Part shown: piece after piece, positions 13,313-16,887 of the stretch
How the letters are laid out: each line of letters opens with the position of its first letter
Numbering within the stretch: position 1 is the stretch's first letter
Origin: an uncultured Actinomycetes bacterium
GTDB taxonomy: Bacteria > Actinomycetota > UBA4738 > HRBIN12
Assembly (NCBI GenBank): GCA_963746995.1
Contig: CAVVDF010000002.1
Span: 9,366 to 73,365, forward strand
Direction: 5' to 3'
DNA: 64,000 nt
The notes under the pieces: generated by a model
The model's input: the letters and a program-made list of their open reading frames with translations, nothing else
Database searches by the model: none
Told to the model about the DNA's origin: nothing
Position numbers and translations under genes: made by a program

Positions 13313-14289
13313 ATGCCGCGTGCCGATCGTGCAGGTCGTCCGCTCCGGGCTCGTCGAGTCCGTGCATCTCGGCGACATCGCCGTGTGCGACGCGCGCGGA
13401 GGGCTGGTCGCCTCGCCGGGGATCCCGAGCGCGTCGTGTTCGCGCGGTCGTGCATGAAGCCGGTGCAGGCGGCCGTGTCGCTCGGCGCGATCGACGTCGG
13501 GGTGCCGGAGCGCGAGGTCGCAGTGATGTGCTCCTCGCATAACGGGGAGCCGGTGCACGTGCGCGCCGTGCGCGGGCTGTTGCGCCGGGGCGGGGGTGCC
13601 GGCGTCCGCGTTGCGGACACCGGCGTCGCGGCCGATGGACCCCGAGGCCGGCGCGCGCGTGCGCGCGCCGGCGCCGATCTACCACGACTGCAGCGGCAAC
13701 CACGCCGGGATGCTCGTGGCGAGCGCCCGCGCCGGGTGGCCGCTCGACTCGTACCGATCGCGCTCCCATCCCCACCACCGCCGGACGCTGCCGTTGGTTC
13801 GCCGGCTCGCCGGGGAGGAGCCGGTGGTGGGCGTCGACGGGTGCGGCATCCCGGTGCACGGGCTCACGCTGCGCGGCGCCGCGACGATGTACGCGAGGCT
13901 GTCGGATCCGAAGGCCCAGACCGAAGCCGCGGCGATCGCGCGCGCAACGGCGGCGATGCGTGCGCAGCCGTATCTCGTCGGCGGGCGCGAGCGCGACGAC
14001 ACCGCCGATCATGGCCGCGGCGCCGGACCTGCTGGTCAAGGAGGGCGCCGAGGCGCTGGACTGCGCCGTCTCGCTCGAGGCGGGCCTCGGCGTGGCGGTC
14101 AAGGTCGGCGACGGCGGGCTACCGGGCGGCCGGGCCGGCGCTCGATCTCGGTGCTCGACCAGCTCGGGCTCCTCCCACCGGGCGCCCGCCGCCGGTTGCG
14201 GCCGTTGCTCCGGCCCGTGGTGCGCTGGCGGCGGGCGCCCGGTGGGCCACCTCGAGCCCGTCGTCACCCTTTCCGCCGCGCGCGCGTAG
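13313..14289 (+). CDS. L-asparaginase II family protein
   Basis: RSGLVESVHLG, FARSCMKPVQA, CSSHNGE, CSGNHAGML, GVDGCGIP, KEGAE. Confidence 0.85.
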
Positions 14290-14299
14290 CATCGAAGGG

Positions 14300-15639
14300 A
14301 TGCGGCCCGAACGCGGTCGCGCCGAGGAGATCTGGTGGGACGCGACACGGGCGAGCGCGCGCCGCGCGCGGCCGTGCTCTCGGTGCACACCTCGCCGGTG
14401 GACCAGCCGGGTACGGGCGACTCCGGGGGGATGAACGTCTACATCCGCGCGGTCGCCACCCGTCTGCAGGACCGCGGGATGGACGTCGATCTGTTCACGC
14501 GCTGCCGCGGCGGCGCGGACCACGAGACCAAGCACCTGACCTCGCACGCGCACGTCGTCGCGATCAAGGCGGGGCCCTGCGCAGCCCATCCCGAAGTCCG
14601 AGCTGCCGCGCTACCTGCCGGAGTTCCTCGGCGGCGTGATCCGCCACGCGAAGATGAACGGTCACCACTACGACGTGGTGCACAGCCATTACTGGCTGTC
14701 GGGCTGGGTCGGGGAGGCGCGTGCGCGAGCTCTGGGACGTGCCGCTCGTGTCGTCGTTCCACACGCTCGGCAAGGTGAAGAACTACTCGCTCGCGCCTCG
14801 GCGAGACGCCGGAGCCGGCGGCCGCGGATCGACGGCGAGACGCGGGTGATCGGGGCCTCGGACCGCATCCTCGCCGCCGACGCCCGCCGAGGCCGAGCCA
14901 GCTCGTCGGCCTGTACCGCGCCAACGCCCGAGCACATCCGGCTCGTGCCGCCGGGCGTCGACCACATGATGTTCACGGCCGCGCGACCGGTACGAGGCGC
15001 GCGCAGCGGCTGTACCTGACCGGGCTCCGGCTCGCGCTGTTCGTCGGGCGGCTGCAGGCGCACAAGGGTCCCGACGTCGCGATCCGCACGATCGCCGAGG
15101 CGATCGCGAGCGATCCGGACTCGACGCGCGACCTGCAGCTCGCGATCGTCGGCGGTCCGAGCGGCACCGACGTCGGCGAGGTCGCCCGGCTGATGGAGCT
15201 CGCGACGGCGCTCGGCGTCGCCGACCGCGTGATGCTCTTTCCGCCGCAGCCGCAGGAGCGGCTCGCCGACTTCTATGCCGCGGCCGACGTCGTGCTCGTG
15301 CCGTCGCGCTCGGAATCGTTCGGGCTCGTCGCGCTCGAGGCGCAGGCGTGCGGCACGCCGGTCGTCGCGGCGCGCGTCGGCGGTCTGCCGTTCGTCGTCG
15401 AGGACGGTCGCACCGGGTTCCTCGTCGACGGGCACGATCCGGGCGAACACGCGCGCCGCGTGCTTGGCGTTGCTCGGCGACCCGTCGCTGCAGGCGACGC
15501 TTGGCGCCGAGGCCGCGACGCGCGCGCTGCGGTTCACGTGGGACGTGACCGCCGACGAGGTCGCCGACGTGTACCGCGAGCTGATCTCGTCGCTGACCGC
15601 GCGACGTCCTGCGCATCGATGCAGGTCGGCGGCGGGTGA
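14300..15639 (+). CDS. mshA: D-inositol-3-phosphate glycosyltransferase (GT4, mycothiol biosynthesis)
   Basis: [57 protein letters not shown]. Confidence 0.88.
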
Positions 15640-15706
15640 TCTTGTCACTCTTTCTCCCAAACGCGTGACCTGCAGATTTGGCACTCTGACCTGCGGAAAC
15701 GTTGGC

Positions 15707-15735
15707 TTGACCACCCTTGGGGCCGCCGATACATT
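15707..15735 (+). promoter_or_regulatory. Near-consensus housekeeping-sigma promoter
   Basis: TTGACC-17 bp-TACATT with no start codon behind it; preceded by two TGACCTGC repeats at 15666 and 15687. Confidence 0.75.
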
Positions 15736-15742
15736 GCGCTTC

Positions 15743-16210
15743 GCTCCGAGCGGCTGGAAGGCCGGGAGGAGAGACCGGACGAGGCGCCGGGCACGCGACA
15801 GGTGGCGACATCGGACGCGGGGAACGGTGCCGACGGGGAGCCGGAAGGCAAAGAGGCCGCAAGGTCACTCAGCCGGGAAGGATCCCCGCACCGGGACGAG
15901 CCGCAAGGCTCGAACCGGTCACCCGGCGCGGACGGTCGCGAGGCCGACGCCGCCGGGGGTCCGCCGCCCGAGGGCGCGGGCCGGCCGCGAGGCCGGCACG
16001 CGAACCACGGAGCCGCCGGACGGCCGCGAGGCCGGACGGAGGAGCCGCAGGGGTGGTGAAGGTGACGCGGGCGCCGCGAGGCGCACCGATCACCGGCCGT
16101 CCGGATCCTCTCCGCCAAGGGCGGCTGGTCGCCCGGGGCACTAGAGCCCGAGGGGCATACGGAGATCGAACGCTTCGGCGGGAGGTCACCGGAGGTCTCT
16201 CGGGCTCTAC
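15743..16210 (+). ncRNA. Candidate large structured ncRNA (~470 nt), family unassigned
   Basis: Strong promoter, seven GNRA-capped hairpins, a cUUCGg hairpin, 5'/3' long-range complementarity and a terminal 11-bp stem (16142-16152/16199-16209). No credible ORF. Confidence 0.75.
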
Positions 16211-16223
16211 TATGTGCCGCCCT

Positions 16224-16887
16224 ATGAGCGGCGATCCGATCGAGCGGCGCGCGGACCAAGCGCGCGGTCGACGTCGAGCAGCGGCGCGAGCGCATCGTCG
16301 AGGTCGCGATGCAGCACTTCGCCGAGCACGGCTTCCGCGGCGCCCACGTCGACGACATCGCCCATGAGGTCGGCGTCGCAAAGGGGACGGTCTTCCTCGA
16401 CTTCGGTTCCAAGGAAGGGCTGTTCCTCGCGTCCTACCAGCGGGCGATGCGGATGCTGCCGGCGTGGCTCGATGCGCCGAGCGAGGTCGTCGACGAGGGG
16501 TTCTGGGCCACCCTCGACTGGTGGCTGGAGCGCACCGAGGAGATGGCGATGTCGGACCCGGTGCCGAACCGCATCGCGCAGATCGGCCGGTACGACACCG
16601 GTCTGGGCCTGCGCCAGCCGATCGACCGGTTCATGCGGAGCGAGGACCCGTACGGCACGCTCGAGTTCGTCGAGTTCGGCGTGCGCCGGGGCGAGGTGCG
16701 CGACGACGTGGACGCCGAGATGCTCGCCTCGATGCTCGACTGGCTCGCGGAGAAGTTCCAGGACGCCCTCGTGTCCGAGGACCTCGACCCCGGGCTGATC
16801 CACCGCCGGCCCGAGCGCCGGGGCATGCGGATCAAGGAGTTCGTCGAGATCCTGCGCGACGGCATCCTCGCGCGCGACGAGGCCTGA
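16224..16887 (+). CDS. TetR/AcrR family transcriptional regulator
   Basis: FAEHGFRGAHVDDIAHEVGVAKGTVFLDFGSKEGLF HTH; one indel near the N-terminus. Confidence 0.9.

Follow-up and report, generated by a model that had tools for sequence, protein, structure and literature searches.

An abundant GNRA-hairpin-rich noncoding RNA of uncultured Actinomycetota is the expanded form, confined to one genus, of a ~280-nt RNA family absent from Rfam 15

To our knowledge, it is rare for a large and highly conserved bacterial RNA to have no known function, and every such RNA solved so far revealed new biology. 6S RNA is a rod of ~180–185 nt with a large central bubble. Its partner is the sigma-70/sigma-A holoenzyme, and it serves as the template for pRNA. 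CsrB and RsmZ have their own promoter and terminator and carry repeated hairpin modules with GGA loops, which bind CsrA. In Actinomycetes, Ms1 (MTS2823) is described as an RNA that binds the RNA polymerase (RNAP) core (PMC4191392, PMC9130861). It is portrayed as highly abundant, ~300 nt in length and equipped with its own sigma-A-like promoter and terminator; its fold is given as a long hairpin, with short ones close to the ends (PMC4191392). The synteny reported for Ms1 consists of HAD-IB hydrolase and oxidoreductase genes, and Rfam is said to hold an Ms1 model (PMC9130861). The raiA motif, as presented in PMC12968392, is a very abundant RNA from a single locus with a conserved closing stem P1, variable peripheral stems and, in some cases, a further stem-loop on the 3' side of P1; it occurs in Actinomycetota.

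The window, a 64-kb stretch of DNA from an uncultured actinobacterium, almost certainly contains a real, expressed and structured RNA gene at 15743–16209 on the + strand. Direct support exists for the gene, its strand and fold, its conservation and copy number, and its abundance in RNA libraries. The first-pass annotation, made from the sequence, had noticed this RNA, and its observation is confirmed. The locus is flanked by MshA-like GT4 fragments, a TetR-family ORF and a proline dehydrogenase (ProDH), as annotated before. The reading frames of these flanking genes are interrupted and split across frames. The upstream elements and the promoter were read from the sequence:

15642–15654, + strand: conserved upstream element TTGTCACTCTTTC
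15666–15675 and 15687–15696, + strand: two copies of TGACCTGC(A/G)G
15707–15735, + strand: promoter with the -35 box TTGACC (15707–15712), a 17-nt spacer and the -10 box TACATT (15730–15735)
15743–16209, + strand: RNA gene of ~467 nt; both ends are inferred positions, the 5' end from the -10 box and the 3' end from the end of the 3' hairpin

The promoter had been claimed as TTGACC-17-TACATT at exactly this position. It is the sole sigma-70-like site in 15400–16500, with a mean of 0.0 sites in shuffles, and it is kept in all 34 aligned homologues and likewise in the short forms of the RNA. In other families of the class, too, the elements of 15642–15696 precede the -35 box, and related GACCAGG..TTTT elements were found in other lineages. 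These elements are candidate regulator or UP-like sites. A reading of the upstream repeats as GlnR boxes was dropped; the spacing and the second half-site vary among relatives.

The + strand of the RNA folds with -302.3 kcal/mol, compared with -246.3 ± 6.5 kcal/mol for shuffles (z -8.65), whereas the - strand has -249.7 kcal/mol (z -2.55). GNRA hairpins with a stem of at least 3 bp occur nine times on the + strand and once on the - strand. The earlier claim of a large structured RNA, transcribed from the + strand behind this promoter, is supported. In 1000 dinucleotide shuffles, the mean was 1.28 hairpins, and nine were reached in 0/1000. With stems of at least 4 bp, the tile of the RNA has eight hairpins, the top value of the 64-kb window, and the best non-overlapping tile has three. 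All hairpins listed in the first-pass annotation, the UUCG one included, are found at their coordinates. Two further GNRA hairpins had been missed, at 15752–15763 (GGAA) and 15801–15812 (GCGA).

Covariation among homologues, proposed earlier as a check on the RNA, is strong. The consensus of 32 same-genus homologues comprises 101 predicted pairs, 38 with compensatory changes, and 97.5% of cells pair. In the control with slid pairing partners, 31–47% of cells pair, and the observed values were reached in 0/500 shuffles. The consensus elements and the hairpins read from the sequence are:

15743–15751, + strand: 5' strand of P1, paired with 16131–16139 (8 pairs, 100% paired in 32 sequences)
15752–15763, + strand: P1a hairpin, GGAA loop in the window (4 pairs, 2 compensatory; GNRA loop in 12/32)
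15771–15785, + strand: 5' strand of P2, paired with 16096–16110 (helices 3–5, 96.8–100% paired)
15801–15812, + strand: GNRA hairpin, GCGA (4 pairs, 3 compensatory; GNRA in 32/32)
15835–15885, + strand: stem around the most conserved hairpin, 15848–15873 (GCAA at 15859–15862; helices 7–8; GNRA in 32/32)
15840–15849, + strand: GCC-GGAA-GGC
15855–15866, + strand: GGCC-GCAA-GGTC
15890–15919, + strand: two-tier GNRA hairpin (GCAA at 15903–15906; helices 9–10, 5 compensatory pairs; GNRA in 32/32)
15897–15912, + strand: CGAGCC-GCAA-GGCTCG
15921–15960, + strand: stem and GNRA hairpin (GCGA at 15938–15941; helices 11–13; GNRA in 32/32)
15933–15946, + strand: CGGTC-GCGA-GGCCG
15962–16058, + strand: long-range helix of 15962–15969 with 16051–16058 (helices 14–17)
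15975–16002 and 16021–16034, + strand: GNRA hairpins inside the long-range helix (GCGA in both; GNRA in 31/32 each)
15980–15997, + strand: GCCGGCC-GCGA-GGCCGGC
16021–16034, + strand: CGGCC-GCGA-GGCCG
16061–16094, + strand: stem and GNRA hairpin (GCGA at 16076–16079; helices 18–19; GNRA in 32/32)
16071–16084, + strand: GCGCC-GCGA-GGCGC
16096–16139, + strand: 3' strands of P2 (16096–16110) and P1 (16131–16139)
16111–16130, + strand: variable unpaired linker between the 3' strands of P2 and P1
16144–16207, + strand: 3' hairpin with a UUCG tip at 16174–16177 (13 + 3 pairs; UUCG in 32/32)
16171–16180, + strand: UUCG hairpin inside the long 3' stem

Compensatory changes in P1 were seen across families and classes. 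The hairpins at 15975–16002 and 16021–16034 have a 15-nt direct repeat in common, at 15982/16021. The first-pass annotation had described a multibranched core closed by pairing of 15786–15820 with 16094–16137. The core is indeed multi-branched, but the closing pairings backed by covariation are 15743–15751 with 16131–16139 and 15771–15785 with 16096–16110. The 11-bp 3' stem, placed before at 16142–16152/16199–16209, exists with other limits, the consensus pairing 16144–16157 with 16194–16207. The small hairpin at 15840–15849 is present in the sequence but lies outside the consensus structure. The 3' hairpin is kept across the class and beyond. In most relatives it is followed by a U-rich, terminator-like tail, which is absent in the window's clade; the window has CTACTATG there instead.

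GNRA is retained at seven loops in 31–32 of the 32 sequences, while N and R vary. The loops switch among GCAA, GCGA, GAAA, GGAA, GUGA and GAGA, and the stems covary freely. This free variation of loops and stems points to a constraint on the fold and not on a sequence read by a protein. Strict retention of GNRA at seven loops despite sequence drift is a signature of tertiary contacts, as would be expected for an architectural, self-assembling RNA: GNRA loops would dock in helical receptors within or between molecules and create a compact particle or a homo-oligomer, as in ROOL, GOLLD and OLE. The large size, ornate fold, GC-richness and very high abundance of the RNA suit such a particle, and homo-oligomeric natural RNAs are described in PMC12286853 and set a precedent. 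Self-assembly nevertheless appears improbable to us. Neither a receptor motif nor loop–receptor covariation was identified in the window RNA, the array varies between genera, which sets it apart from peripheral contacts in known ornate RNAs, and the models of ROOL, GOLLD, OLE and HEARO gave no match.

GC-rich DNA folds well unaided, and several frames have long ORFs that overlap the region. Both facts could be taken for a non-functional origin of the signal, be it a GC-rich spacer, a MITE/REP repeat or a mis-read coding region. We judge this explanation to be already refuted. The fold is strand-specific, the compensatory changes lie far above the controls, the RNA depth is high and restricted to the element, and the element is near-universal in the class. 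The 2.96-Mb genome has a single match, and not the many dispersed copies that would mark a repeat element; a MITE or REP is ruled out. Among homologues, stops and non-triplet length changes occur in every frame, leaving no conserved reading frame, and four ORFs overlapping the RNA region have no Pfam match. A coding region is thereby ruled out as well, in agreement with the earlier statement that the gap has no credible ORF.

A scan against Rfam, also proposed before, returned no family for the locus. None of the 4227 families of Rfam 15 matched anywhere in the window at gathering. With E up to 10, the only match in 15600–16300 was a chance match of MIR169_7 on the 3' hairpin, and the short form had chance matches only. 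A search of 19 related loci at gathering yielded only a tRNA. RNase P RNA (201.6 bits), tmRNA (126.4 bits), SRP RNA (78.2 bits) and raiA RNA (G000:C5:161599-161830, 147.1 bits) are encoded elsewhere in the genome, which rules out a divergent universal RNA. The claim that the locus is not RNase P, tmRNA or SRP RNA is borne out by the location of all three at other loci above cut-off. 6S was found neither in the window's genome nor in any of the 74 genomes of its family. A convincing 6S-like RNA of up to 36 bits, below the Rfam cut-off, occurs beside the RNA family in families f5–f8. Because of this coexistence, the RNA family is not simply 'the 6S' of the class. The literature search found no description of the RNA; the supplementary tables of Ms1 homologues (PMC9130861, PMC4191392) might list deep-branching Actinomycetota.

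The RNA is present in 33/36 genomes of the genus and in 217/294 genomes of the order, with all eight families represented. In the whole class, an uncultured lineage of soil and groundwater actinobacteria, 230/251 genomes encode it, including 107/109 high-quality ones. Homologues outside the class were detected in the lineages f18 (7/10), f14 (4/10) and f11 (1/1). A match of model R1 in family f43 (L237) was judged false, being AT-rich DNA without other features of the RNA family.

Within an Actinomycetota family of ~280 nt that is absent from Rfam 15, the window RNA represents an expanded form specific to its genus. In all forms, conserved elements precede a strong promoter of the sigma-A/sigma-70 type, P1 pairs the 5' end with the stretch that immediately precedes the 3' hairpin, a small hairpin adjoins P1, and the 3' hairpin is conserved and terminator-like. 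The common short form consists of the closing stem P1, a rod-like core of ~200 nt and the 3' hairpin. Its rod contains only small purine-rich internal loops, for example 3x3, and no large central bubble. A GUAA hairpin of the short form (GCC-GUAA-GGC) was rejected because covariation favours pairing of its GGCC with a distant GGCC. In the window's genus, the rod is replaced by a multi-branched array of GNRA hairpins. Other genera of the family have their own arrays of GCCGCAAGGC-type hairpins, in differing numbers and at lengths of 285–430 nt, and locus L040 of another family has a similar array. The interior of the RNA is replaced wholesale between genera, and the array is not conserved between them. 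It is absent from the short form, the far more widespread and ancestral one.

The arrays may also be viewed as a multivalent scaffold or sponge. GNRA hairpins with purine-rich linkers would bind many copies of one RNA-binding protein and titrate or organise it, as CsrB and RsmZ do with CsrA, and the number of modules would vary by genus. The nine GNRA hairpins of the window, with the 15-nt direct repeat of a hairpin module, and the separate arrays of other genera and of L040 are in line with this function, and the high abundance fits a titrating RNA. We are doubtful, since the widespread ancestral form has no array and a sponge function would have been gained later. The free variation of loops and stems speaks for a fold constraint instead, no candidate protein is known, and among stable caps in GC-rich RNAs GNRA is the most common type.

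The first-pass annotation had suggested metatranscriptome reads as evidence for a discrete transcript. Contigs from four RNA runs of four studies are confined to 15755–16117, with a word depth of up to ~80,000. Word depth over the RNA, which derives from assembled contigs without strand or end information and in part from relatives at 80–99% likeness, was 79,796 in run X2 and 23,317 in run X3. Both flanks had zero depth in X1–X3 and were at or near zero overall in the four runs. The depth over the RNA was more than 1000-fold that of the downstream ORF and was greatest in the stretch 15835–15885. Run X2 holds 18 contigs of at least 99% likeness, indicating the presence of a close relative in that run. 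None of the four RNA runs covered the 3' hairpin (16146–16213) or the first ~12 nt; contigs and end effects can explain this. Word shares were 9–15% in 20 RNA runs and were not taken as habitat evidence. The window RNA is best explained as an independently transcribed, stable and very abundant noncoding RNA.

Within the class, ProDH always follows the RNA immediately and in the same orientation; in the window's genus, the RNA is followed by TetR and ProDH. In the window, an ATG begins at most 3 nt after the 3' hairpin, which leaves no room for a separate promoter. This arrangement would be compatible with a cis-regulatory leader, the 5' part of a tetR–proline dehydrogenase transcript in which read-through of the 3' hairpin is controlled as in a riboswitch or by a protein. 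The window's clade lacks the U-rich tail, and the order of a P1-closed domain and then a hairpin is reminiscent of an aptamer with a terminator. A leader is still very unlikely. Outside the class the neighbours differ, f18 and f14 having an upstream gene of the YbjN family and f11 a malic enzyme, and ProDH was absent among the ten flanking ORFs tested there. The 3' hairpin keeps its sequence to the UUCG tip (32/32), unlike expression platforms, and the only readable anti-terminator has ~5 bp (CUCGG with CCGAG) against 12–13 bp of the terminator stem. A ligand pocket would not tolerate wholesale replacement of the interior, and a leader does not fit an RNA depth more than 1000-fold above the downstream ORF.

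The differences in neighbour genes between lineages favour an action in trans over a cis role. We infer this action, a protein partner and a physiological role, and tentatively suggest that the molecule may be a trans-acting, protein-binding stable RNA, possibly sequestering RNAP like Ms1 or 6S. Its role would be that of a housekeeping RNA which binds protein in cells that do not grow. The most likely target would be RNAP, sequestered in the fashion of Ms1/6S. P1 and the 3' hairpin region would serve as a constant handle and the interior as a variable structured body. Counted for this reading were the Ms1 likeness of the short form, the lack of 6S in the window's genome and family and the housekeeping spread; counted against it were the lack of an Ms1 or 6S model match, the other synteny, the lack of a large bubble and the coexistence with a 6S-like RNA in f5–f8. 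An alternative of low probability is a new class of ultra-abundant RNA particle with a fixed P1/3'-hairpin handle and a swappable body. Its GNRA array would fold or oligomerise by loop–helix docking into a multivalent assembly, RNA-only or RNP, with a role unrelated to 6S and Ms1, for instance as a body that serves storage or organisation in dormant soil cells.

The RNA is near-universal in one uncultured class of soil and groundwater, occurs in further lineages of the phylum and has no counterpart among the 4227 families of Rfam 15. Its representation in environmental RNA libraries far exceeds that of adjoining genes. The family is a natural experiment in RNA architecture: in a sub-clade, the ~200-nt rod was swapped for lineage-specific GNRA arrays, while promoter, P1 and 3' hairpin stayed fixed. 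A polymerase regulator of the Ms1/6S type in actinobacteria other than Actinomycetes would fill a known gap; otherwise, the RNA would be a new class with unknown chemistry. Either reading is directly testable.

As far as Ms1 is described in the sources above, it resembles the RNA family in several respects. Both occur in Actinomycetota, are very abundant and diverge fast in sequence between lineages. The ~300 nt of Ms1 compare with ~280 nt of the short form, a rod with the P1a hairpin and the 3' hairpin. Both are single-gene units with a sigma-A-type promoter and a terminator-like hairpin, here with a U-rich tail in most relatives. Unlike Ms1, the RNA had no match to that family in the all-family Rfam scans, including those with E up to 10. 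The HAD-IB hydrolase and oxidoreductase flanks were not seen; here the neighbours are MshA-like GT4, TetR, ProDH, YbjN or malic enzyme genes, and the terms 'proline dehydrogenase' and 'glycosyltransferase' have 0 occurrences in PMC9130861. The short form lacks a large central bubble like that of the Ms1 fold, and the window form is multi-branched and has the corresponding region closed into a helix. Of the 'expanded Ms1/6S-like' RNA suggested in the first-pass annotation, the expansion stands, at the level of the genus and from a ~280-nt family. A kinship with Ms1/6S gained no support, given the lack of a model match, the synteny unlike that of Ms1 and the multi-branched fold.

6S (RF00013) is likewise an abundant stable RNA with its 5' and 3' parts paired into a closing stem. 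Its model matched neither the locus, at gathering or with E up to 10, nor the short form. The RNA family differs by its length of 280–470 nt versus ~185 nt, by the extra 3' hairpin and by the separate 6S-like RNA in f5–f8. With raiA (RF03072), as far as PMC12968392 describes it, the RNA shares the single locus, the abundance, the closing P1, the variable stems, the 3' stem-loop and the occurrence in Actinomycetota. The raiA model has no match here, core sequence and helices differ, and a canonical raiA RNA is encoded elsewhere in the genome. CsrB/RsmZ are similar in having their own promoter and terminator and hairpin modules that vary in number between lineages, but the loops here are GNRA or UUCG and not GGA, and the ancestral form has no array. 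OLE, ROOL, GOLLD and HEARO are, like this RNA, large and intricately folded bacterial RNAs recognised by covariation. They belong to different taxa, and their models had no match. They are patchy or phage-linked, whereas the RNA described here is chromosomal, single-copy and near-universal in its class.

In the window lies an expanded, lineage-specific member of an RNA family of uncultured Actinomycetota that is near-universal, highly expressed and uncatalogued. The expanded RNA lies between fragments of an MshA-like glycosyltransferase (best match TIGR03449 MshA) and a TetR-family ORF, which is followed by a proline dehydrogenase. Reading frames of the flanking genes are broken (13313-15639 and 16212-16887): asparaginase II is spread over two frames and the MshA-like GT4 over two or more; of the ATGs at 16212 and 16224, neither is in register with the TetR HTH frame (from 16309). 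The splits look more like assembly indel errors than pseudogenes. After the MshA-like gene comes a hairpin (15631-15646) that resembles a weak terminator, has a T-rich tail and overlaps a conserved TTGTCACTCTTT element.

Features of the RNA gene and its upstream region (P1 and P2, closing helices; both from the consensus of the same-genus alignment A1):
15642-15696, 5' of the -35 box: TTGTCACTCTTTC and two TGACCTGC(A/G)G repeats
15707-15735, + strand: promoter TTGACC-17 nt-TACATT
15743-15751 with 16131-16139, + strand: P1
15752-15763, + strand: small GNRA-capped hairpin
15771-15785 with 16096-16110, + strand: P2
15801-15812, 15848-15873, 15890-15919, 15934-15945, 15975-16002, 16021-16034 and 16061-16094, + strand: GNRA hairpins of the multi-branched body
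15962-15969 with 16051-16058, + strand: long-range helix
16144-16207, + strand: separate 3' hairpin

The promoter and every hairpin proposed in the first-pass annotation are present at the positions given there. The promoter is the sole sigma-70-like site in 15400-16500, and none occurred in shuffles. Two GNRA hairpins (15752-15763 and 15801-15812) add to the earlier list. The closing of the RNA by 5'/3' pairing was correct in kind, but P1 and P2 lie at other positions than proposed. The upstream TTGTCACTCTTTC and TGACCTGC(A/G)G elements are kept across the class, related GACCAGG..TTTT elements occur in other lineages, and they could serve as UP-like or regulator sites.

Counting stems of ≥3 bp, the + strand has nine GNRA-capped hairpins and the - strand one. 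Dinucleotide shuffles had a mean of 1.28, and nine were reached in 0/1000; the count is far above that of every other tile of the 64-kb window. The + strand fold has -302.3 kcal/mol (z -8.65) versus -249.7 (z -2.55) for the - strand. A 15-nt direct repeat in two hairpin modules (15982-15996 and 16021-16035) suggests growth of the array by hairpin duplication.

Full-length homologues with 67-92% identity were found in 33 of 36 same-genus genomes. A1 comprises 32 of these homologues; its row L017, whose genome is unpublished, does not affect the outcome. Covariation was strong: 38 of the 101 consensus pairs had compensatory double changes, versus 5-11 when partners were slid by 1-3 columns. Cells forming a pair amounted to 97.5% versus 31-47% for the slid partners, and 0/500 shuffles reached any of five measures. 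The GNRA pattern is retained in 31-32 of the 32 sequences at seven loops, with variation at the N and R positions, and the UUCG tip in all 32. Most homologues have stops in every reading frame, length differences are not multiples of three, and four ORFs overlapping the RNA had no Pfam match. The RNA has one copy in the genome, unlike a dispersed MITE or REP-like element. The RNA gene is conserved, structured and non-coding.

Rfam 15 gave no match for the whole window at gathering level. With E values up to 10 allowed, the RNA region gave only a chance microRNA match; the family's short form (about 280 nt) yielded nothing real and 19 related loci nothing besides a tRNA. The first-pass annotation had noted the absence of RNase P, tmRNA and SRP signatures. 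These three RNAs and the raiA motif RNA were each located elsewhere in the genome, above cut-off; the canonical raiA motif RNA (147.1 bits) is at G000:C5:161599-161830, outside the window. A literature search of main texts found no description of this RNA.

The RNA is abundantly expressed. A word search revealed 20 RNA runs from 13 studies with 9-15% of the region's words. Metatranscriptome contigs of four runs from four studies (X1, X2, X3 and X5; soil, groundwater, soil and freshwater) included 11, 90, 32 and 13 contigs at ≥80% likeness, which carry neither strand nor true ends. They were confined to 15755-16117, except for a depth of 1-3.5 at 16248-16383 in X5. Summed word depth, partly from relatives, reached up to 79,796 (X2) and 23,317 (X3); X1-X3 had no depth in the flank bins 15500-15737 and 16146-16500. 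Carry-over of DNA would be expected to cover the flanks as well. X2 had 18 contigs at ≥99% likeness and therefore a very close relative, whose flanking genes were not seen.

Outside the genus, only the promoter with the 5' end and the 3' hairpin match. Most genomes have a different core between these ends, in an RNA of about 280 nt. The short form matched 217/294 genomes of the order, with all 8 families represented, 230/251 of a class sample and 107/109 of the genomes ≥90% complete and ≤5% contaminated; up to 20 unpublished genomes are counted in these tallies. When 36 published-genome short forms were aligned, 80 pairs resulted, 35 of them compensatory; P1 leads into an irregular rod, whose internal loops are invariant, and then into the 3' hairpin and a U-rich tail. 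The full GNRA-array interior is restricted to the window's genus (33/37 genomes). Arrays of their own, built of GCCGCAAGGC-type hairpins and with lengths of 285-430 nt, occur in other genera of its family and in one other family. One 20-mer of the short-form core was present as an exact match in 108 stretches of a 185,579-species collection; the 80 listed are from MAGs, almost all of which carry the label Actinomycetota or Actinomycetes bacterium. Of 151 genomes sampled across the phylum, 24 were matched by a covariance model of the 3' domain. Matches outside the class included families f18 (7/10), f14 (4/10) and f11 (1/1) and one unpublished genome. On inspection, these loci are full homologues that share the promoter layout, P1 and several of the conserved motifs of the core; one further match, in f43, was judged false. 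The cross-class alignment (16 sequences) has 79 pairs, 40 compensatory.

Within the class, at four loci including one from an unpublished genome, proline dehydrogenase is always 3' of the RNA, with the TetR gene in between in the window's genus. This constant order would suit a riboswitch-type cis leader, as would the missing U-rich tail in the window's clade and an ATG within a few bases of the 3' hairpin; the last two features may allow some read-through into tetR. A cis leader is nevertheless very improbable. Neighbours differ outside the class: in f18 and f14 a YbjN-family gene is directly upstream on the same strand (L229:656-1144, L231:1992-2957, L233:1875-2810), in f11 a malic enzyme gene is convergent, and none of 10 flanking ORFs tested in these families was proline dehydrogenase. 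Sequence conservation of the 3' hairpin, wholesale exchange of the interior between genera and a readable anti-terminator pairing of only about 5 bp also argue against it. The earlier proposal of a large RNA acting in trans thus stands, the trans action being our inference; its Ms1/6S and GNRA-docking parts are unproven.

A structural body is a better reading of the GNRA array than a set of sequence-specific binding sites, because the loops vary freely within GNRA. This variation also speaks against a scaffold or sponge, which is unlikely; self-assembly is less probable still.

6S RNA was not found in the window's genome, where it is the only classical abundant stable RNA not found, nor in 74 genomes of its family. 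A 6S-like RNA (29-36 bits against RF00013, cut-off 46.4; L217:1501-1612, L249:501-613, L248:501-661) is conserved in families f5-f8, where it coexists with the present RNA family; at 31-36 bits it is convincing there though below cut-off. Model search and BLAST did not find it in f1-f4. On the leading reading, the window RNA would sequester RNA polymerase in the manner of Ms1 or 6S. This reading is possible but doubtful, because no model of either matches the window RNA or the short form, the 6S-like RNA coexists, the synteny differs from that of Ms1 in the available parts of its descriptions, no large bubble is seen, and the window form is branched. The most conserved internal regions across classes are short helices around small purine loops, with no single large open bubble. 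Ms1, as described, is an RNAP-core-binding RNA of Actinomycetes, about 300 nt long and highly abundant in stationary phase; it has a sigma-A-like promoter and a terminator of its own and folds into a long, bubble-containing hairpin flanked near its ends by short ones (PMC4191392, PMC9130861). The short form resembles this outline.
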